Shown here: one piece after another, positions 4,830-60,197 of the stretch | Numbering within the stretch: position 1 is the stretch's first letter | Layout: the number at the start of each line of letters is the position of its first letter | DNA from: Eledone cirrhosa | Lineage: Eukaryota | Assembly: GCA_964016885.1 (NCBI GenBank) | Contig: OZ024743.1 | Span: 264,802,001-264,866,000 of the forward strand | Direction: 5' to 3' | Length of the DNA: 64,000 bases | The notes under the pieces: model-generated | Databases searched by the model: none | The model's input: only the letters and a program-made list of their open reading frames with translations | Told to the model about the DNA's origin: nothing | Made by a program: the position numbers and the translations under genes

Positions 4830-6237
4830 TATATTTATATACACACACATAAATATATTTCCATAGCATACATAAATATATATTCACTCTTGCAATTACG
4901 GGTGATTGTGTACCTTGTTGCCTTTAGTCATTAACATATAAACCTAAGGAAGCTAAAACATTAAAAGGTAAAAAATAAGCATGAATGCATGTAATTAGGG
5001 GAAAGGTGTACTCATAAATGTTACTCTATATAGAATTATAGTGAGTTGCTATTTAGAATATTTAATTAGGTTTATAGTATTTAAATGTTCTTCGTATACT
5101 GTGATTACAAACTATGATCAGTTCCTGCCTTTTATTTAATAAATGGTACTTAGATTTAGTAATTTCCAAGATCTCCCCTGAACATAATCTCCATTCCCTA
5201 CTGTTCCCAAGATATGGAGTTCTTTGTAGAAGAAGGTGTTCCGCGATAACTTGAAATCTATTTTTTTCTTTTTAGAATTATTTACCGCTTCAGATAAAGA
5301 TGTGGTGATAGCTAGTTTAGTATTGTTGAAACTACTAGAGTGTGCGTAAAATACTTTCTTAAATGTGTTTGATGTAGATCCTATATATGTTTTGTTGGAG
5401 TCTGTAGTAGACACAGTGCATTTATATATTACATTATTAATCAAACATTTGCCATTTAAGTGGCAAATGCTTCTATTTCTGCAAATACAGCCATACGTAA
5501 GATGGTTGTTGGGGGTGCCCATACTATATGATTAATCCTGGAGCTATTCCTATTGTAATTAATGATAGCAGGAGAATGAAGGTTGCTTTTTGGGTGGTTT
5601 GGTGCTAGCGTTGTATTGTGATTTTGTGTTCTGTTGTTTTTGTGTTGGTGATTTGGGTATTTGTGTTTTCTAGGTTTTCTAGGTTGTATTATTTGCCTTT
5701 TTAAAAGGTGCAGTCCTATTTAAATTATGTTGTGTTGGTGTAGTCATATTATTTTTAATTTTATAAATGTTGTAGTTGCTTATTTTATGCTGGAGATTGC
5801 TTGATGTAGAGTATGAGAATTTAACAGTATATTTGTTAAATATGAGCAGAGTCCATGGATCCCATCGTAATATCGAATAAGTTGTTATATGTGTTTCTCG
5901 TCCAGTATTCTTCTTGTAAGTTTAGTAAAGTTTTTCTAGGGTGAGTTACGATGTTGATTTCCTCAGTAGATAAATCCGATCTATTTCTGGTAAAGATCAG
6001 TGCTTTATTTAAAAGAATTGGAGAAATCGAAGAATACTAAGAATCGATGTCGAATTAAATGAATGAAGCTGAGTTTTTATTCCCAATGCTAGTGAAGCAT
6101 TCAATAACTTGGGAAGTGTTATCCCATATTGGAAGTGTTACACATTTTCTAATTTGCGGAATGATACGATCAATAATCTTTTTGCTGATATTACAGATAT
6201 CAGATTTTGATGGGCATATCAGTCTAATAGATGGGTT
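4830..6237 (-). mobile_element. Decayed Penelope-like element: RT N-terminal fragment, deletion, GIY-YIG endonuclease, 3' UTR
   Basis: ORF 6055-6381 has NPSIRLICPSKSDICNISKKIIDRI...WDNTSQVI...SFI (PLE RT); ORF 5136-5522 has NNVIYKCTV...TYIGSTSNTFKK..YAH (GIY-YIG). Confidence 0.85.
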
Positions 6238-6912
6238 CAACCATCTTACGTATGGCTGTAATTGCTGAAATAGAAGCATTTGCTCCTTAAATAGCAACAG
6301 TTTTTTTAATAATGTAATATATAAATGCACTGTGTCTACTACAGACTCCAACAAAACATATATAGGATCTACATCAAACACATTTAAGAAAAGATTTTAC
6401 GCACACGCTAGTAGTATCAACAATACTAAACTAGCTAACACCACATCTTTAGCTGAAGCGGTAAGTAATTATAAAAAGAAAAAAATAGATTTCAAGTTAT
6501 CGTGGAACACCATTCTACAAAGAACTCCATATCTTGGGAACAGGAGGGAATGCAGATTATGATCAGGGCAGATCTTGGAAATTAATAAATCTAAGGACGA
6601 TTTATTAAATAAAATGCAGGAACTGATCATAGTTTGTAATCACCGTATACGAAGAACATTTAAATACTATAAACCTAATTAAATACTATAAACCTAATTA
6701 AATATTTTAAATAGCAACTCACTATAATTCTATATAGAGTAACATTTATTAGTACCCCCTTTCCCCTAATTATATGCATTCATGCTTATTTTTAACCTTT
6801 CAATGTTTTAGCTTCCTTAGGTTTATGCGTTAATGACAAAAGGCAACAAGGTACACAACCACCCGTAATTGCATGAGTAAATATATATCTATGTATGATA
6901 TAGAAATATATT

Positions 6913-10360: not shown

Positions 10361-12339
10361 TATTTCTTTATTTGTATTTATATCCGTTAATTTTGTTTTT
10401 GTTTATAACGGTTTTTTTCCTATAATGCTCAAGATAGGAGCGTCCGTTGAATTCTAGGCCCGTGTTTGACATTCTATATGCTTGTTTGTGTTTTTGATGG
10501 TCGTCCACAGATTTGATGTAATTTTTGTTGTGTTAACAATGATGTGAAGATCAGGCGGTTTGGAGTCTGGCCTTGAGGTGCCATCCCAGATCAGGATTCA
10601 GCTGCCTGGGGAATATTTGTGAACAGGATTAAGGAATAAAAATACACGTACCTGTTGGATTTCACTACAATTTATTAGAAATTTCCAGTTGTTTGGTTGG
10701 TTGGTTCAATAACCGGATGATTGTTTATATATTGTCAAAGCTTAATTTGCACCTCTCCTTTCTTCTGTCGTAAACCATCAAGTGCTTTGACATTTTATAA
10801 ACAACCATCCGGTTATTGAACCAACCAAGCGGAAATTTATAATAAATTGAAATGAAAATCAACAGATGCGTATGAGTTTGTTGGCAGCATGACTCCCAAA
10901 TTATTACAATATGTATATATACATGTGTGTGTGCGTGCGTCTGTGTGTGTATGTGTGTGCCTCTGTGTCTGTGCGCACTTCAAATTAAAGGATAATTGAG
11001 AAGCTTAATCATCTTACATATTATTTGTTATGATACATTCACATAGTGTATAATTGCTATACATTCTTATTCGGTTGAATTTCTTAAACTGTGACAAGTA
11101 TTTCGCATCTCCTTCAAGCGCATAAGACGTTCAGTTCTATTTGTATTTGCCCAGACAGTTGACATATTTTTTTAAACCCATGCAGTGTCGATTTTAACGA
11201 CAGATATAAATTGTTTTGTATAATCTATGGGACATATCTGAAGACGATTCTTCAGACAATTAGTTTTTCGTTTTCTGTAGTTCTACCAAAATCGATAGTT
11301 GGTAAAGCTAAATCAGTGGGACGAAACGAAATCAATGTTATGGAGAAACGGCGGATAATTGTTTACCTAACCTCGTAGGTATGTTTAGACACACACACGC
11401 ACACACATATATATATATTCAAATATTCGAGGTCCGTGGGTCATGCACTGACTGGACAGGACGGTAAATAGGGCAGTCACAAGGCGTAAGTAACTATACT
11501 GTTTCGAAATATAAAGATTGCCGCGTAAGCGTGGAAAATATAGTTCAAGACAACAAACATAGGTACAATAGATACATTAGTTTCACTCCTCTTTCCAATA
11601 TAGAGCGTGAAAATAATAAGACTTTGTGTACCTCTGTTTGTTGTCTCCTTGAATTATACATATATACATATACATGTATATATATATATACACACATATT
11701 CAATGGAAAATTTCTGTCCATATTTTTAAAATAAAATATATATGTTTACGTTCTATCGATATAACCTGATTTGTAAAATACCGTGTATGCGTATATCAAT
11801 ATATAGAAGCATATGCGTACAGCATTATTCGTATTGTTCTGTATATGTGTGCTTCCTGTTTCATCAACCTCACCGTGTGGTTTTAAACCAATGTTCTCAC
11901 CAATGTTTGGTTATTTTATATAGAAAAAGAATTTTTTCAATATTCTGACAGCAATAGAAGAGTGTCCGTTTTCTCCTCAAATTTATTGAAGCCACTTGGA
12001 TGGCATAAGAACTGGAGAAAGGCGAAATTTATAAGACACACTCAATTGATAGCTGATAGTGAAAATATAAAGACATCTTATTATTTATAGCAGATGTTTT
12101 CAATCGATAGTTTTGAAGGAGGAGCTGCGAAGGTTAAAGTAGACAAACTTTTTACCGCCTTTAAAACACTTAAATAGATATTTACAGAGTTATATCTCGG
12201 GAAAATATCGATACGAATGATAGTTGCCTATAGTTTAAAAGCTTTTTTTAAACATATATCAAGAGGTCAAATGTGACTTAGACGCATTCATATATCATTT
12301 CGTAATTATGTATGTATGTGTGCCTGTATGTATGCATGT

Positions 12340-12890
12340 ATGTTTGTTTTCTCTTTCTCTTAATTTCGAGTATATTTTTTTGACCGGCCACCTTCCTGGT
12401 GGCAAGGTTGTAAAAGAAAAGAAATTGTCATCCCTTGAATCGCAAGAATGTTTTGCATATTTTGAAGGTGCCAGCTATCGCAGCCATTTGTAGACTATGA
12501 ATTAGGGAGCTGCGCTTTTTGTCCGCAAATCCAAGTTCGATCATACTTTGTATGTATGTATGTATGCCTGTATGTATGCATGTATGTATGTATGTATGTA
12601 TGTTATATCTCTTTCTCTTAATTTCGAGTATATTTTTTTGACCGGCCACCTTCCTGGTGGCAAGGCTGTAAAAGAAAAGAAATTGTCATCCCTTGAATCG
12701 CAAGAATGTTTTGCAAATTTTGAAGGTGCCAGCTATTGCAGCCATTTGTAGACTATGAATTAGGGAGCTGCGCTTTTTGTCCGCAAATCCAAGTTCAGTC
12801 ATACTTTGGTCCAAGCGGGTTGGTATATAACCCGTAGCTCCAATAATGATGGGTATGAAGCTAATGGTGTATCTTGGATACTGGATTTGT
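12340..12890 (-). mobile_element. Two tandem 5'-truncated 3' ends of an RLE-type non-LTR retrotransposon embedded in (TATG/CATA)n
   Basis: ORF 12686-13024 [13 protein letters not shown]...LGF...LQMAAIAGTFKICKTFL resembles an RLE C-terminus; ~12345-12550 repeats at ~12605-12808; (TATG)n on all sides. Confidence 0.7.
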
Positions 12891-13578: not shown

Positions 13579-14095
13579 GTATGTGCAGTGGCGGACTGGC
13601 CAGGTTGCCAGGTCGCACAATGGCAAGTGGGCCCAGGGTGGCCACGGTAGCATTGCAGTTGCCCACAGTAGCATTGGAGGGCTCACTGTATTATTTTAGG
13701 GGCCGATGCTTTGCTTTCAAAAAATATCTTAAATCTAAGAGTAAGAAAAAAATTGTTTAAAAATAAATTAAATGATTAAGCAAAGCATTTGGTCAACCAA
13801 TTCCGCACGGAATTAATAGAAACTAAAATATATGATAGAGCAAATAGCTGGAATCAGTAGTTGTACATTCTACTAAATCTAAGGCTTTGTGTATTCATTC
13901 ATGCATGCAAACATACATATATTGACACACACAAGCATATGTCTATATGAAATTTCGTTTCATTCTTTTCCATTTATCGTTTTCGGTGCGCCCGGCCGAC
14001 TAACTCACTCGATATGCAAATTAGGCTGCTCAGCCGTTAATATGAATAAGCAAAGTATATACTTTCAGACGTTCAATCATGTGGCAAGGAAGTAT

Positions 14096-14138
14096 ACGAT
14101 GCTGACGATGGGTAATAAGCTTGAAACTAGTACATCGT
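14096..14138 (+). ncRNA. Type I hammerhead ribozyme motif (family A)
   Basis: acgatg-CTGACGA-tgggtaataagctt-GAAA-ctag-TA-catcgt: 6-bp stem I, intact core, palindromic stem III; stem II weakened. Confidence 0.8.
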
Positions 14139-14283
14139 TCCTGTGTCAGTGTTGAACAAAAAGGTGAAGATGGTTGCCTGAACACTGTACGACATATGTA
14201 TATATGAAATTTCGTTTCATTCTTTTCCATTTACAAGCATATGTATACACTTTCAGAGGTTCAATCAACTGGCAAGAAGGTAT

Positions 14284-14326
14284 ACGGTGCTGACGATAGC
14301 TAATAAGCTTGAAACTAGTACATCGT
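14284..14326 (+). ncRNA. Type I hammerhead ribozyme motif (family A)
   Basis: acggtg-CTGACGA-t-agc-taataa-gct-t-GAAA-ctag-TA-catcgt. Confidence 0.85.
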
Positions 14327-14676
14327 TCCGTTGTCAGTGTTGAACAAAAGGGCAACGATGGTTGCTAAACACTGTACGGCTTAATTCAAGATGTTTGTTT
14401 ACAAACAAACCGAGCATTATAATAAATGTTTGATAAATCCATACGTACATATACATATGTGTGCATGTATGTATATATATACATACTACTGTACGCCTGT
14501 ATACATATATGTATGTACGTATACATACTTATATTTAAGTAACAGCCGTACTAACAGTGAGAAATGAAATTTCTTTTCACTTTTTCGATCTATATATATA
14601 TATAAAGAAAAAGAGATGGAATCGAAAATGCAACTGGAGTCTTATTTTTTTTTTAAATATATATATTTATTTGGTT

Positions 14677-14714
14677 CCTTTACCGGTTTCGCAGTTCTTC
14701 TGCTTTTCAAAAGG
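14677..14714 (-). ncRNA. Type I hammerhead motif, U3-A8 core variant (family B)
   Basis: Reverse complement of 14776-14813. Confidence 0.75.
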
Positions 14715-14775
14715 TGAGTTGAGATGGAGGGTCTGTGGTTTTTCTGAAAAACCACAGACCCTACATCTCAACTCA

Positions 14776-14813
14776 CCTTTTGAAAAGCAGAAGAACTGCG
14801 AAACCGGTAAAGG
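14776..14813 (+). ncRNA. Type I hammerhead motif, U3-A8 core variant (family B)
   Basis: cctt-TTGAAAA-gcag-aagaa-ctgc-GAAA-ccgg-TA-aagg. Confidence 0.8.
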
Positions 14814-14945
14814 AACCAAATAAATATATATATTTTAAAAAAAAATAAGACTCCAGTTGCATTTTCGATTCCATCTCTTTTTTTTTATACTTTCACTCGT
14901 GTAGGACACCTCGGTTATTTTTCATTTTGTTAAAAAAAACCTCAC

Positions 14946-24927: not shown

Positions 24928-26924
24928 ATGGCTAATTCACCTCTGCACCAAACAGCTGAAAGCCTTCTTCACAAATTAACACCTCACACCGACACCACCA
25001 TTGTAAATGTTACTACGTTTGCCAACTCTAAAAAAAATATAAGCACTAGCAATATTTTAAATTTGTCTCAGGCAGACATTCATTTCCCGCCATTACCAAT
25101 GACTGCAGGTGTTAAAGCCTCCACCGCCACCACCACCGCGACAACCACCACCCCCACCACCACTGCGACAACAGAAACAAAAGAAGAAAAAAATAAATTA
25201 ACTCGTGATGTCGAAATGAAATCAAGCAAAATGGACTCTTCCCCACCAAAGACGACTGACGTCACCACAACCACAACTGAAACTAAAATTAATATTAACA
25301 CAAATAACGATAGCAACAACAACAACAATGACATTATAAAATCGACCCTCAGTTTCGCCAGATTAGCAAAACAGTTCGAAGCATTTACGGTAACTCAGGA
25401 GGGTTTAGAAAATGCCAAACAAATGGTAAAGAAAGATGGGTACAGGGTCAGCCCCCCCCCCCACACACACACCTAATAAAATGGAGCATCGGCGCCTATG
25501 CACCGTGTCGTATCGAACAATAAATGTAAAATCGCGCCGATTTGAACGGGCATCCGAGTCCCAAATCCAAAAAGCTTTGGGACATGTGTGGGCAAGAAAA
25601 ACCCACATCAGACGTGGGCAGAAGTATGGAACCGTGGACGTGTTCTTTGAAACACCAGAGGAGGCTAGAGAACATTCCATGGCCCCATTAAGAAGTGACG
25701 ACTTCTCACTCGTCCCAAGCTATTGTGGCCAGAGACTCGTAATGATCAGGGTGACCCACGTTCCACCGGCCATCGAAATTCCCTTGCTAATAGCGGCCGT
25801 CCTCGCCGGCATCGAAGCCAACACAAAAATAATAGCAATAGCAAAAGAAAAGCAAGAGAACTGGTCCGGATCTGGGATGGAGCTCCTGATCCAAGCGGAC
25901 CAAAAAAGCATTGAGGAAATCCCAGAGGTAATAGACCTCACTGACGGCAGCCACCTCACGGTAATTGTCGAGGGCAGAAGACCTAGGTGTGTCGTTTGTG
26001 GTGAAGGAACCCACCTAAGGGATTTCTGCCCTCAGGCTAAAAGGTTGAGGCCACCTCTCCTACCCACCCCAGTGACACAACCATCAACACCACCAGTAGC
26101 AGAGATGGCAGCAACAACTGTAGCAGCAACAACAGAAGCAACTATAACAGCAACAACCCCAGCAACAGTAGCAAAACCAACACCACCACCACCAGCAAAA
26201 CCAACACCACCACCACCCAACGCTTCAGAACTAGCACCAGCGCCTACACCATCCACCACGCCACAACCAAAACTAACGCCTGTGGAGGATTTTCCACTCC
26301 CCGGCCTATCACAACTGGAGACAGATTGTGACGACGAGGAGTGGGAAACGATATCCGGAAAAAAAAAGAAACCAAAAAAGAAAAAAATATCTTCCTTCCC
26401 CCTCCAAAAACAAAATACAGAGGGAAACAAGTAAACTAAGAAACAAAAAAGTTAGGACAGATATACCACCATCCAGACCAGCATCACCAACCCCATCAAC
26501 CCAAACACCAACACCATCACCATCATTAACCCCAACACCACCATCACCTACACCACAAAAGTCACCAAAATGCGAAACAGAAACAAACCCACAACAAACG
26601 CAAACAAAACAAAACAACCAAAACGATACACACTACACAGCATTAAATTTGAACAACAAGCAATTATTACACTACATCCAACACAACACCAGCATCACAG
26701 AAAAAGACTACACAACAACCCCAAAATTCACACCACCTCCACACATACAAATCACTCGCATCACACAGAAAACGTACATGACACTAAAACAAAAATTCCC
26801 CAAAGACATCGGAGACATCCGACAAGCACTCTCCAGGAGGATTTATAAGGACATCCTTCCTGAGGAGGCCACAAGCAGTGAAAAGGATGGAAAAACCGTC
26901 CTTCCCCTACGAGAAGTAAGGTAA
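24928..26924 (+). CDS. LINE ORF1 (gag-like, CX2CX4HX4C zinc knuckle, Pro/Thr-rich), split by two homopolymer frameshifts
   Basis: Overlapping ORFs 24928-25476, 25436-26434 and 26328-26924 overlap at a C-run (~25452-25462) and A-runs (~26359-26388); motif CVVCGEGTHLRDFC. Confidence 0.75.
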
Positions 26925-26953
26925 GTGGTCTTTCCCATCTTTTCCTTTTCAAC

Positions 26954-29900
26954 ATGACCTCACTCAGAATAGGCAGCATAAATGCGCGTGGCTTGGGGTC
27001 GTCATGGAAGCAGGGCCACCTGCTCAACGACCTCAGGTCACTAAACATAGATGTAGTGGCCATCAGCGAGACCAGAATCTCCGAAGCACAGGCTTTCGCA
27101 CCGATCTTCGGCGGCTACGATGTGTACGCATCTCCCAGCCGTCCGGGATCGGGGGGAGGAGTTGCTGTGCGTATCGGAGAGGTTTGGATCTTGCCATACG
27201 GGCCATCTTCCTGGACCCAGAAGGTAAGTTGGTGGTGCTGGACGTGACCAGCGGAGACGGGCAAGCTTTCAGGTTAGTGGCCGTCTATGCCCCGACAGGA
27301 GCAGGGCGGCCTGATTTCTTCCGGCGTCTGGAGACCTTTCTTGGAACGTCCCGCTCTTTAGTGTTAGTGGGCGACTGGAACGGGATCTTAGATGCACGCT
27401 GGGATTGTGTGGGATTAGTGGATAGGGAAGGAGAGTGCAAGAGTCTCACCAACCTGCTCAAACGTTTTGAACTGTCTGACAGGTACCGAATGGATTTCCC
27501 GAATGTACCAATGTGGACTTGGACAAATCGCATAGGGTCATCCAGATCATATCTAGATAGAGTATTTTGTAGGGAAATAGATAGGTCTAGCATAGGCTGT
27601 CCACAATTCAAGATAGTCAGCTACACGGACCACAAATTCGTGATCTGTGTGCTTGATTTAGATAGGCTTCATAGACGAGGACCCGGCTACTGGAAGCTAA
27701 ACGCGTCCTTACCAGCGCGCAAGGCCTACAGAGACCGGATTAGCGAACTAGTTAAGCGGGCGTTGACGGGTGCCATCGTCAACAACAAGTGGTGGTTTGC
27801 TCTGAAAAGAGCAATTAGAATAGAGTCCATTAGGTTTAGTAAGACTTTAGCAATAGAGAAAAATAGAGCAGAGGGAGAATTAGTTAGAAAATTAGATGAG
27901 GCGCTTAGCAAAGGCATCGCGACCGACGTACTTGCGGCGAAATTGGCCCTTGACCAATTCTTCAATACAAAGCACGAAGGCTGCGTTGTCAGAGCTAGGG
28001 TGCGTGCTCTCAGACACGAGGGGACGAAAGCCGTTCAATGGGCCCGAGTGGCGGAGGCGCGTCGTGGCAACAAAGCCACGATCCGGTCTTTGGTGGACCA
28101 CGACGGGCGCATGCTACTCGATCCCGGGCAAATGTGTGAAGCTTTTCAGCGACACTTCGCTCAACTGTTCGGGGGCAGTGGCGGGCCGGATCGAGGGATG
28201 GACTTTAGTGTCTACCTCGACGGACTGCCGCGGCTTTCGGCCACTGAGGCGGAGTGTTGCGAAAAGCCGATAACAACCGCTGAAGTACGGGATGCAATGA
28301 CTAGTTGCACAAGGGGCAAATCGCCTGGTTTGGATGGTCTGCCCTATGAACTTTACGTACAAATGCCAAACTTGTTCGGAGGCCTCTTGGCGGACGTCTA
28401 CTGCAACTGGCAACAGAACGGGAGAATTCCCAGTTCTGTGAGCCGAGGAGCGGTGGCGCTGCTGAGAAAGGATCCGAACAAGGGGGATAACATAGATCAT
28501 TTTAGGCCCATAACTCTGCTAAACACAGAGTTCAAGATTTTGGCCAAGGTGCTAGCAAAGAGGTTGGCGCTTGTCGTTGGTGGTCTGGTGGGAGAGGCAC
28601 AGACATGCGCCATTCCCGACAGATCCATCCACGACAACCTCCACCTCATGCGATACATCGTAGAGAGGGTAGCTAGGGAACCTGGCACGGGTGGGTCTTT
28701 GATCAATTTAGATCAGTCGAAAGCCTTTGATAGGGTCGACCATCGTTACCTAGCGGCAGTCCTGAGGGCGGCTGGCTTTGGGCCCGTCTTCAGAGGCTGG
28801 ATCGCTGCCATGCACAGCGACATCTGCTCTGTAGTGAGAGTGAACGGTCACCTTTCGGAACCGTTCAACATCATGCGCTCGGTCCGCCAAGGATGTCCCC
28901 TCTCGTCCCTATTGTACGTATTGACTCTCGAGCCATTACTGCACAAACTGGAGACGTTGAGGGGGGTCCCGCGCGAACTAGGATGCGGAAGATCCGTGTC
29001 AGCATATGCCGACGATGTCACCGTAGTGGTGTCGAACGTCAAACACATCGAGGCGATCGGCACTACACTAAGAGAATACGAAGCGGTGACAGGAGCAATG
29101 ATCAACCAGGAAAAGTCAGTGGGCCTGCAGCTCGGCACCTGGAGAGGCAGGTCCATGCCGTCCAACAGCGTCGTCGGGCGCTGGACGGACGGACCGGTTA
29201 AATTGCTAGGGGTCTGGTTCGGTCCAGACCTCCAGACGGACAAAAACTGGGACGAGGTGACGAGCAGGGTGGCTTCTCTCACCCAGAAATGGGCGGAGAG
29301 GAAGCTATCCCTGAAAGGTCGAGCAGAGGTGGCGAATGCGTACATCGCATCCGTCATCTACTACCGCCTGACCGTCGTACCTTGTCCTAAGCCCCGCCTG
29401 ACTGCGCTGGAGCGTTTGCTCTTTCGCTTCTTGTGGAAGGGACGCGCTCCGATGGTCAGGCGGTCCATCTGCTGTCAACACCCGCTACGTGGAGGGCTGG
29501 GCATGCCGTGGCTGATGATGCGCAGACACGCGCTCAGGCTACGACATCTCCACCTCTTCCTCGACGGTGATCAGGTGTGGTCGCCGTTTGCAAGGCACGT
29601 TTTTCCCCAGCTCGTCTCCTTGACGGAGCTGCAGTCCTGGGTCAAGCGAAGACCGAGAGGGAGCGCCTGGAGACTGGAATGTCTTCACGCGCTCACAGCC
29701 CTCGACCAATCGGGCAATGTGATCGGTGGAAACTCCACCTTGGCGTTCTATAGGGGATTAGTGGAGGGGAAGAGCGACGACGTACTTGGAGAAACTCTAG
29801 GCGTCGACGAAAATCAACTAGCCAATCTCTTCGGAAGGACTTTCGGGCCGGGGCCTATGGACAACTTCCAGAAATCCCTGGCCTGGCAGTGCTACCGAGG

Positions 29901-30372
29901 AGCTTTGCCAGTTCTGGATAAACTCTACAGGCACGGAGGTGCCGTCAGCCGGGCATGTCCGAGATGCGCGCAGGGCGACGAAACCGTCCTGCACGCACTC
30001 GTCCAGTGTCCGAGCATTGCTGACTTGTGGGTTTATGTCGAACACCTGCTGTCACGTGTAGGTCCTATCCGGCTATCAGCTGAGTCCATCGTGAGGATTG
30101 CCCCGCCCCCTTCCTTTATCCTGGAAGGGCAGGCAGTTTTTATTTGTCTGGTGGCCATGGCGAAAGAGATAGTATGGTGGACACGTTTGAAAGGGCTGAA
30201 GACGAGCACTTACCTCTTCGGTGATGCCCTGATTAACTTTTTCAAATTTCATTTGAAAAGGAAAATCAGGGTAGAGAGGGAAGTGCTCTCTTCCCAGCAT
30301 TTTGTTGAAAGATGGGTGAGAGAAGCAAGTATGGCCCGAATGAATGGGCCTTCTCTGAGTATGTGTCTGTAA
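26954..30372 (+). CDS. LINE ORF2: apurinic-like endonuclease, reverse transcriptase, C-terminal Zn motif; one frameshift at ~27170
   Basis: SINARGL, ISET, LVGDWN, YLDRVF, YTDH (APE); KSPGLDGL, FRPITLLN, LDQSKAFDRV, RQGCPLS, YADD (RT); CPRC...ETVLHALVQC. Confidence 0.93.
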
Positions 30373-45109: not shown

Positions 45110-46144
45110 GTTTCACGCTTGAGAGTGGGGCATGGGGGAGCGACGTTTCGGGCATATCATAATCTATAACGCTCAGTGTGCGGTCATGCTCCTTCGTTAT
45201 AGAAATCTACGATATAGAATTTCTTCAATTGAAATTTACAATTCAGTATCCGAAATAGTTTCGATCGCGTCTTGACGCAGATAATTTTTTCAATTTCACC
45301 CACAATTACGCAAAAAATAGATAAAACTCAATATTCTACGATTTTTCTCTCTCATTTAAACTGCTGAAACCTTTCTACTACCATTCAAAATCTATACAAC
45401 TTCATACTTTCTGCTACTTTCTCTTTCCAAGCTTGATGGTGATACTGTCCGTTCACACCACTCCCTACTGTCTTAAATTTAGAAAACACATATCCTCTAT
45501 GAGGTTACTAAACCTGCTAGAAACAGCAGCTAACTCTCCCCCATATCACACCCCTCCCACTGTCTTAAAATTAGAAAACATATCCTCTATGAGGTCACTA
45601 AACCTGCTAGAAACAGTAGCTAACTCTCCCCCATATCACACCACTCCCTACTGTCTTAAATTTAGAAAACACATATCCTCTATGAGGTCACTAAACCTGC
45701 TAGAAACAGCAGCTAACTCTCCCCCATATCACACCACTCCCTACTGTCTTAAATTTAGAAAACACATATCCTCTATGAGGTAACTAAACCTGTTAGAAAC
45801 ACCAGCTAACTCTCCCTCATATCACAACCCTCCATACTGTCTTAAATTTAGAAAACACACAGACAACCATGCATAACAACTCCATCGCAGCTCTGTTGTT
45901 CGGGTGGCATCGTCTACGCGCGTGTTGCGCAAGTACTGTGAAACAATAAATTTCAACACTTTTTTGCACAGAGATAATATCCATAGGCGAAACTACAATT
46001 GTCACTGCTGGCGCAGCTCATGCTTCCAGGTCTGCAATTCATTCACCCAGTGCCTGGCAGACAAAAAAGTGCGGCCATAAAATGGGTGGTGAAACCTAAC
46101 TTTGGTAACTTAATGACCTCGAGCAACGCCGGGCTTTAATGCTA

Positions 46145-47699: not shown

Positions 47700-50339
47700 C
47701 ATATATATATATGTACATATATATACGGACATTATAATTAGGGAAGCAGACAAGGGAGGTACTGTTGTCATTATGGATACTGAAAAATATAAAAATTCTA
47801 TGTTCTCTCTCTTACAAAATGCTAATTACTATGAAAGAGTAAAAAACTACCACCAATCAAAAACAATGACCAGATTAAACACACTGATTTGTTGATACCA
47901 GGAAGCCTTAACTAAAAAGGAACGCGATTATTTAACACATTTTGAATAAAAAACCAGCAGCCTTTACGGAGTTCCGAAGATCCACAAGTGTAAAATAATT
48001 AACGATGCCTGTAAACAATCCACCTCAGCCTGCGTGAACTCACAATACCCACACAGACTTGAAATTAAGACCATTTGTAGCGGGCCCACAATGTGAAACA
48101 GACAGACTGAGCAACTCTATAGACATACTACTAAAACCATTTCTCAAACACATACCAAGCCTTGTAAGAGACGATCTATACCTCTTAAACCACCTCCCCA
48201 AACATGTCAACAATGACACTATTATTGTGTCTTTCGATGTAGTGAATCTCTACACAACGATCCCACACCAATGCGGACTAGACGCAATAGGATTCCGGCT
48301 AGAGAAATATCCCAATGAGATACCTGGCAGAATAGAAAAAAGCTTCATCACCGAGGGATTAAAATTTATCTTACAGAACAACTTTTTTGATTTCAATGGC
48401 AGTACTTACAAGCAAATATCGGGGACTGCGATGGGTACAAAATCCGCTCCAACTTATGCCTACTTAGTCATGGCATACTTAGATGTCCAGATATATGAAC
48501 AGTCCAAATCAAAATATGGATTGAACTTCCACAAATATTTATCAGAGAATTGGAAACGCTACTTGGATGATTGTCTCATTATTTGATCGCCACACACTCG
48601 ACCAACTGAAGGATTTCAAAAACTTAATAAACGGCATCAATAACCACATCCAATTCACAATGGAATACAACCATGATCAACTCCCATTTCTGGACATCTT
48701 AATCTTAAAAAAAGACACAAATATTGAAACTGACATACACTACAAACCAACAGATTCCAAACAATACCTGTTATTCACCTCCAACCATCCAACGCACACG
48801 ACGACGAACATTCCTTTTAACCTAGCAAGAAGATTTTGCACAATTGTCTCCAATTATGAAACGCGAAATAAAAGACTTCAAGAATTAAAGGAAATTCTAC
48901 TCGAAAGAGAGTACCCACCATTACTAATAAATAATGGAATAGAAAGGGCTAAAGCAATAGACATTGATGAATTACGAAAACAGAAACAAATTCAAAGTAC
49001 GTCCAATATTCTATCATATATCTCAACACGCAACCCAATAAATGCGGAAGCTTACAACACTATTCACAAGAACATCTCACTACTAAAACTAGACCCAAGA
49101 ATGAAAAAAGCCCTTGAAACATACAAAATAATCAAAAGCAAAAGACAACCGAAATCACTGAAAACATTACTCACCAATGCCAAATTACGTACCACAAACC
49201 CAAAACAAACTGTCAAAAAATGTGGTCGCTTTAATTGTGGAACCTGCACTCACCTCATTGAAGGAAACACGTATATATTTAAATCAGGACAACATTTTGC
49301 TGTAAAAATTCACTTCACTTACTCATCAAAAAATCTGCTTTATGCCATTGAATGTAAAGGATGCAATGAAGATTATATAAAACAAACTAAACTCACACTC
49401 AGAAACAGAATGACAGTTCATCGCCAACAATTACGAGATCCAAACACGAGACAGATACCACTGAGCGCACATCTAGACATATGGGCAAGTAATAAGACAC
49501 CCAAATTCCAAGTCTTCCCATTTTACCTTTGCGCTGACAATACAACAGAACAAATACGAATAAATAAGGAAAATATGTTTATTCAAAAATATAGACCAGC
49601 ATTAAATATGGTTTAATATACATTATATCAACACCATAACATGCTAACCATCCAAACAGACACATACACACACACATCACACCTGCTACTTTAGAAAATA
49701 AAAACCCCGAACTAAATAAACCTTAACATACTTTTGCGCTGACAATACAACAGAACAAATACGAATAAGTAAGGAAAATATGTTCATTCAAAAATATTCC
49801 TACTAACGGAATCATTTTCCTACACACACACACAATATATGTATTTTCTCTTCATCTTAACATGCTAACCATACTCCAACAGACACATACCACCCCCACC
49901 CTCACACACACAACTCCCTCCCGCATTTCTACTAATATAATCACTTTCCTACACATATAAACACACACACAAAATATATATATTCTCTCCATCTTAACAT
50001 ACTCCCCCCCCCCACACACATAACACCCATACACACACACACACCTCCCTCCCCCATTACTACTAATAGAATCATCTTCCTATACACACACACACACACA
50101 TACACACACACATCACACAAATAAACATACATATCTTTACTTTCTTTATTTCAATAGAAAATCTGAATTCTGACACCCCAGCGAACTAACCATATTCTCT
50201 GAACCAGAACAATTCTCCCACCCCATTTCTCTTGACCATTATCTTTTGCGTGTCATAAAATTCTTTAAAAAGGCTACAGAATAAATTTCCAAATACGGGC
50301 ACGAAATTTAATAAAAACTTGTTCACGTGATAGCCATAA

Positions 50340-50580: not shown

Positions 50581-50639
50581 AGTAACATTCAAAGACCAAC
50601 CAGATTTGAGAAAAACCACCGACCCTCCATCTCTACTCT

Positions 50640-50677
50640 ACTTTTGAAAAGCAGAAGAACTGCGAAACCGGTAAAGG
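50640..50677 (+). ncRNA. Type I hammerhead motif, U3-A8 variant (family B), in the PLE terminal repeat
   Basis: ctt-TTGAAAA-gcag-aagaa-ctgc-GAAA-ccgg-TA-aag. Confidence 0.75.
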
Positions 50678-50808
50678 AACCAAATAAATATATATATATT
50701 TTTTTAAATAAGACTCCAGTTGCATTTTCGATTTCATCTTTTTTTCTTTATACTTTCACTCGTGTAGGACACCTCGGTTATTTTTCATTTTGTAAAAAAA
50801 CCTCACTT

Positions 50809-50848
<40 letters not shown>

Positions 50849-58982: not shown

Positions 58983-60197
<1,215 letters not shown>

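Follow-up and report, generated by a model that had tools for sequence, protein, structure and literature searches.

The window, a stretch of 64,000 nucleotides from contig OZ024743.1 of Eledone cirrhosa, carries at 13947 to ~14591 a member of a dispersed, ORF-less hammerhead repeat of ~425 nt. Since the copies of this family bear the insertion footprint of PLEs, we read it as a non-LTR retrozyme, i.e. a non-autonomous PLE, which a PLE protein targeting (TA)n probably copies in trans. The initial annotation had suggested a non-LTR retrozyme family tied to PLEs, and this suggestion is supported, more directly than that annotation could do, by the copy number, covariation, end geometry and the one-tail rule of inverted pairs. 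We document here the unit, its copy number, the covariation, the end geometry and the target of the family, which, as far as sequence can tell, agrees with non-LTR retrozymes in all features that could be tested and likely behaves as a non-autonomous PLE. Many animal genomes contain hammerhead repeats, so that in kind the find is nothing unusual; its contribution is the end geometry, namely an ORF-less family showing the two-start, one-tail footprint of PLEs. In the literature examined, the link between retrozymes and PLEs consists of co-occurrence and homology, whereas here it is an insertion footprint. No description of the family was found in literature searches made outside Repbase and Dfam; the supplement of PMC7229834 may list cephalopod repeats.

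Two type I hammerhead motifs are present on the + strand, motif 1 at 14096..14138 and motif 2 at 14284..14326, with CUGACGA cores at 14102 and 14290. Both have GAAA, a palindromic A-CUAG-U stem III, the UA end of the cut triplet and a 6-bp stem I, in agreement with the hammerhead core CUGANGA / GAAA / UH with an open stem I, and the predicted cuts fall after 14132 and 14320, at a distance of 188 nt. A strict descriptor gave 2 matches in the window, as compared to 0 in 98/100 and 1 in 2/100 of the dinucleotide shuffles. No Rfam hammerhead was found at gathering score in the whole window or at E<=5 in 13800-14700, and therefore the hammerhead call rests on the descriptor and the covariation. Rfam also gave sub-threshold miRNA matches, but these lie in the TA-rich hairpin and were dismissed as chance hits. 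Both motifs had been annotated as intact; their presence, cores, cuts and stem III are confirmed, but stem II of motif 1 is weakened by a G-G mismatch and a G-U wobble in comparison to AGCU/AGCU in the family. Motif 2 keeps all family stems, with one G-U in stem I. Folding of 92 nt around each motif gave z -3.1 for motif 2 and z -2.05 for motif 1, and the whole 331-nt dimer region gave z -0.84. Three stem I variants had also been described as keeping their pairing within the repeat. The third of these variants, acgttg/cagcgt, lies outside 13949-14580, at 59804-59846, where the core is mutated to CUGGCGA and the adjoining inverted copy has CUAACGA. This is part of a second family insertion in the window (59067..60130, subfamily b), which consists of an inverted copy without the tail and a partial tandem with the tail, has (TA)n on either side and both hammerhead cores mutated, and follows the one-tail rule of inverted pairs.

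The locus of the two motifs is composite. Family matches start at 13947 with piece 1 (13947..14191, + strand), which covers unit positions 1-245 without the 3' half and is subfamily a-like (233/243 identical to the a consensus, 228/241 to c). It is followed by a local duplicate of 13936-13976 (14193..14233, + strand, 40/41 identical), made of 11 nt of flank and the first 30 nt of the unit and stopping at the tail end of the family, and by a duplicate of the flank 13932-13945 (14234..14247, + strand, 13/14), which resembles a target duplication and is joined to piece 2. Piece 2 (14248..14591, + strand) is a 5'-truncated unit beginning from ~position 111, subfamily c-like (193/201 to c, 182/201 to a), and includes an internal TA/TACA-rich hairpin and the 3' tail, after which (TA)n comes next. 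The tail of ~60 nt, located at 14530..14591 (+ strand) between the two fixed 3' ends of the family, has predicted hairpins. Going by the subfamily consensuses, the 188-nt pair is a locus-specific mosaic of a-like and c-like pieces and is probably not a source element. The spacing most likely arose at one site, either by two insertions or by a template jump, because a duplicated flank lies between the pieces, the subfamilies differ, and elsewhere both units belong to one subfamily in 16/19 within-locus pairs.

The reading of the locus as a plain tandem repeat of 188 nt does not hold, as Tandem Repeats Finder reported no 188-nt period in 13949-14580 and no spacing near that value occurs in 14 same-strand neighbours among the first 100 matches listed, which lie 391-453 nt apart. 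It is likewise very unlikely that the 188-nt interval is a functional unit giving a 188-nt circle. A double hammerhead with all stem I and III pairs can be drawn for it, but the interval is a two-subfamily mosaic with the duplicated flank in between, stem II of motif 1 is damaged, and no such spacing is seen in the sampled neighbours. Moreover, the predicted 188-nt circle folds no better than its shuffles (z -0.9), whereas all ten natural family monomers of 422-464 nt are predicted to form structured unit-length circles (z -4.2 to -8.6; 30 shuffles each), with the TA-rich hairpin contributing part.

An exact 39-mer of the family occurs 1,916 times in the 3.0-Gb genome, a 21-mer outside the ribozyme 7,556 times, and a degenerate core pattern has 12,616 matches; the reversed control of each gave 0. 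The first 100 matches listed fall into 78 dispersed clusters with arrays of at most five, and include 8 divergent and 0 convergent neighbour pairs. The 14 same-strand neighbours among them are mostly 420-433 nt apart and, from the range of 391-453 nt, we arrive at a unit of ~425 nt. Alignment was made of 88 units from 70 loci, picked by a non-ribozyme motif (first places on one contig), of which 65 could be typed and 64 of these fall into five subfamilies. A sister family, 72% identical, was found at locus L064 and sampled in 20 loci. When two natural units were doubled, their longest ATG frames had 43 and 64 codons. The unit is hence short and ORF-less, with a type I hammerhead and both tandem and dispersed copies, as in non-LTR retrozymes. 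Three sequencing runs of one sample, contigs only and their kind not stated, contain the family at very high depth, which has no bearing on expression.

Stems I-III of the hammerhead are maintained by compensatory change. The covariation alignment has 55 rows (3 window copies, 33/52 eligible family copies and 19/20 sister copies), 53 of them distinct, in which 94.4% of the stem cells are paired in comparison to 37.8% and 41.7% after a shift by one position. Changes on both sides of a pair are seen in 3/6 pairs of stem I, 3/4 pairs of stem II, the centre of the palindrome and an outer helix, but the covariation is a handful of events between subfamilies and not 53 independent ones. Stem III reads ACUAGU in 33/36 family rows and ACAUGU in 13/19 sister rows, and since the palindrome is kept through this swap, the alignment supports folding as dimers; canonical metazoan hammerhead motifs have been described as folding as dimers (PMC4209133). 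The base of stem II departs from the Watson-Crick closure of a hammerhead. Position 10.1-11.1 is U-U in 64, C-A in 5, G-A in 1 and C-G in 3 of the 73 family copies, i.e. non-Watson-Crick in 70, and it is non-Watson-Crick in all 19 sister copies (A-A 18, A-G 1). Of the 73 covered motifs, 43 pass the intactness filter. The core is better conserved than the rest of the unit: non-CpG core sites differ from the subfamily consensus at 8/643 positions and other non-CpG sites at 394/12,519 (p 0.004), the latter figure being inflated by unseparated sub-subfamilies. Owing to this inflation, the conservation points to selection on the source copies and not on every insertion.

The ends of the copies carry the footprint of PLEs. 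We collected 206 unit ends from 129 loci, 59 loci picked by ribozyme likeness and 70 by a motif outside the ribozyme, and these comprise 75 no-tail ends, 72 tail ends and 59 read-throughs. Among 44 tail ends, 37 lie at a single base and are followed by (AT)n, while the second fixed 3' end lies ~60 nt upstream of the tail end; ~65 of the 75 no-tail ends precede (TA)n by a rough pattern. The 5' ends are scattered, with 32/88 units abutting an inverted family copy and 30 abutting the previous unit. In 35 inverted pairs the tail is one-sided in 32, on both sides in 2 and on neither in 1 (binomial p 2e-7). Thus the family displays the 5' truncation, partial tandems and inverted 5' copy of PLEs, together with their optional tail, usually on one end only and here ~60 nt in length. 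The tail and inverted arrangement has been drawn for PLEs in bioRxiv 2021.04.23.441226, and mapping has placed the PLE tail in the interval that separates two RT start sites (PMC11167929). As regards target-site duplications, which in non-LTR retrozymes exceed 4 bp where present, one 14-nt duplicate is present in the window and most family ends sit in (TA)n.

This geometry bears on two other origins. It is highly improbable that the family is a SINE-like repeat which a LINE copies and whose templated tail is (TA)n: 5' truncation with a fixed 3' end is a general mark of TPRT and an intact LINE ORF2 sequence is present in the window, but the two fixed 3' ends, head-to-tail units and one-tail rule (32/35) match PLEs, and no tRNA- or Rfam-type head was found at gathering score. 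Almost no weight can be given to a satellite that expanded from an old pLTR through unequal crossover and kept the ribozyme as a neutral relic. Such an origin has been proposed for vertebrate retrozymes (bioRxiv 2026.07.22.740005), and units within one array (identity 0.94) are no more alike than same-subfamily units elsewhere (0.948), a comparison which is uninformative as a test of rolling-circle copying. However, the dispersal into many clusters with short arrays, the precise ends and inversions, and the compensatory changes between subfamilies speak against it, and because of the end geometry a satellite origin is largely refuted.

It is also unlikely, as a third possibility, that an autonomous PLE has the unit as its pseudo-LTR and left the copies behind as truncated debris. 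Such an origin would account for the end geometry, which is the same as that of PLE insertions, and for the ribozyme, as pLTRs bear type I motifs; PLE ORF fragments are also present nearby in 15/129 loci. On the other hand, those fragments belong to several families, their orientation is mixed and most lie on the far side of (TA)n at the 3' ends of the hammerhead family, as the shared (TA)n target predicts, and the ribozyme is canonical, with a 6-bp stem I and a 4-bp stem II, not of the minimal PLE kind. No ORF-bearing member was found in 129 loci, a screen of ~0.37 Mb from which a rare parent could escape, and the screened loci lack the RT + GIY-YIG ORF between repeats that marks an autonomous PLE with pLTRs. 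Similarly, 0/88 tail junctions run into an ORF start and 44 go on into the next unit. The initial annotation had offered a PLE terminal repeat as an alternative and had asked whether the family is ever joined to a PLE ORF; neither is seen in these loci and junctions.

As a partner of the non-autonomous family, a Hydra-clade PLE is the likeliest, with roughly an even chance. A young PLE family with intact open frames of ~713 aa is present in the genome (10 loci; L186-L195, e.g. L186:1637-3778). It has two fixed ends ~90 nt apart, each into (TA)n, and its tail is one-sided in the inverted cases seen (L187, L188, L193). The protein carries the CxCX5C and DKT motifs, which are described as marks of the Hydra clade, whose families are all reported to insert in (TA)n (bioRxiv 2021.04.23.441226). 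Pfam gave no match for the 713-aa PLE; Atlas clusters gave HTH_animal/GIY-YIG/RVT_1 at 0.96-0.99. This element is a candidate only, because it shows no sequence homology to the family unit and other PLE families are present. A hammerhead-like motif occurs in the repeat of the 713-aa PLE; its core is the variant CAGAAGA, its stem II has U-U at the base, and its stem III is long. The family at L062/L066-L080 was considered as a parent PLE repeat and rejected, being separate and mostly ORF-less, with U-U in only 1/12 scored copies.

Template-switch chimeras between the family and a PLE ORF were also considered at four loci (L030, L183, L143, L166). No downstream remainder is present within ~8 kb, but three of the four stop at the no-tail 3' end of the family, before (TA)n, and are therefore explained by nesting in the shared target. 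At L166 (L206:2345-2944) the unit breaks mid-unit and a PLE endonuclease fragment follows within ~20 nt on the same strand without (TA)n in between. This case is a possible template-switch chimera.

We envisage the following route for the non-autonomous family. Tandem copies would be transcribed into multimers, in which two motifs may pair via their palindromic stem III. Cleavage would be slow, with ribozyme activity presumably damped by the mismatched basal pair of stem II, and the monomers would perhaps be ligated into circles. A PLE protein would then bind the tail region and nick (TA)n, and on each strand cDNA would be primed once, at either of two sites separated by ~60 nt; such once-per-strand priming would leave an inverted structure with the tail at one end. 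Since 78/88 units reach well upstream of the cut site (2 start within 5 nt of it), cut linear monomers were not the main template; an uncut multimer or a circle is suggested instead, the two being about equally probable. Published data advise caution on the predicted cleavage, as only 1/9 Xenopus retrozyme dimers were reported to cut in vitro (bioRxiv 2026.07.22.740005), and a PLE ribozyme was reported to need protein and to be dispensable for insertion (PMC11167929). A further idea, which we consider possible but doubtful, is that a ribozyme circle parasitises Hydra-clade PLE proteins without homology, being recognised by the tail structure alone, with the hammerhead kept deliberately weak by the conserved stem II mismatch (U-U, C-A, A-A) and the dimer-only stem III. 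If this were true, movement of retrozymes by PLE machinery would be proven directly in the genome by the 12,000+ insertions, and the family would be a ready substrate for in vitro testing. The presence in the genome of a young intact PLE with the same target makes mobilisation in trans testable at the bench.

An octamer, ATGCAAAT, is present at 14014..14021 (+ strand) as annotated initially, but it is not limited to one unit. It is kept family-wide, with 5 changes in 354 sites (p 0.06 vs the rest; other blocks are kept too), and occurs in 19/20 sister copies. Newt satellite 2, described as a hammerhead repeat which cuts as dimers, reportedly has a snRNA-type internal promoter that uses an octamer. 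In contrast to that system, the octamer is present in 0/23 U1/U2 upstream regions here. Of these regions (L081-L095, L196-L203), 22/23 carry a motif close to TTACCTCCCTT near -260 and they also share a TCAGT element near -60; the distal motif is absent from the sense strand of the unit, which resembles the -60 element only weakly, by a TCAGTG. None of 10 alignments of the unit to U1 upstream DNA was significant, and a snRNA-type internal promoter is not supported. A newt-type snRNA promoter for a hammerhead repeat is cited in PMC2220036.

In comparison to the metazoan non-LTR retrozymes of coral, mussel and axolotl described in PMC7229834, the family is similarly ORF-less with a type I hammerhead, its ~425 nt fall within their reported unit range of 150-450 bp, and both have low GC, no LTR/PBS/PPT and a structured predicted circle. 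In the axolotl HHR_Amex2 of the same report, the basal pair of stem II is likewise a U-U mismatch, and this ribozyme cuts better as a dimer. In contrast to these retrozymes, most copies of the family are monomers, inverted pairs or partial tandems, which have (TA)n as target and two fixed 3' ends, and the circles and cleavage of the family are predicted from sequence, whereas both were demonstrated there. The EN+ PLEs of the Hydra clade (bioRxiv 2021.04.23.441226) and Poseidon PAc (PMC11167929) are described with the same partial tandems, inverted 5'-truncated copy, one-end tail, two RT start sites and hammerhead in the repeat, and for Hydra also the (TA)n target. The family differs from them in lacking an ORF and in its tail of ~60 nt as compared to 30-40, and its sequence is not homologous to that of the Hydra-type family examined in this genome. 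Xenopus retrozymes, presented as PLE derivatives in bioRxiv 2026.07.22.740005, are likewise non-autonomous, hammerhead-bearing and co-occurring with PLEs; their link is reported as co-occurrence and pLTR homology, whereas our family is linked by its insertion footprint and shows no parental homology. Non-autonomous Chlamys PLEs, e.g. MRC1, are also ORF-less and head-to-tail, with pLTRs; unlike our family, they are described as having 3' sequence in common with their partners and mostly no hammerheads. Cephalopod hammerheads are on record, as 235 Rfam hammerhead loci are reported for the giant squid genome (PMC6962438).

Several other elements were seen in the window and the genome. Apart from the family described, the genome has at least four unrelated families of type I hammerheads (L016:988, L026:637, L187, L191; L021; L188/L190; L066-L080), one of them with a 47-nt stem II region. 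In the window, a frameshifted PLE at 48038-49616 (+ strand) has an RT (Pfam RVT_1, E 1.5e-5) and a GIY-YIG-like C-terminus, and an inverted pair of 5'-truncated PLE endonuclease fragments at 5136-6605 has a CxCX5C linker and a TA-rich end. A LINE at 25430-30372 (+ strand) has a stop-to-stop frame of 1150 aa with endonuclease, RT and zf-RVT, preceded by a frame of 334 aa. A 93-bp tandem array of 4.4 copies lies at 45453-45859 and a 258-bp duplication at 12313-12808. Directly past the (TA)n of the hammerhead element, a 289-bp palindrome (98%) is located at 14601-14889, with one arm again near 50600-50810; from this recurrence and its high depth in the sequencing runs, it is another repeat family.
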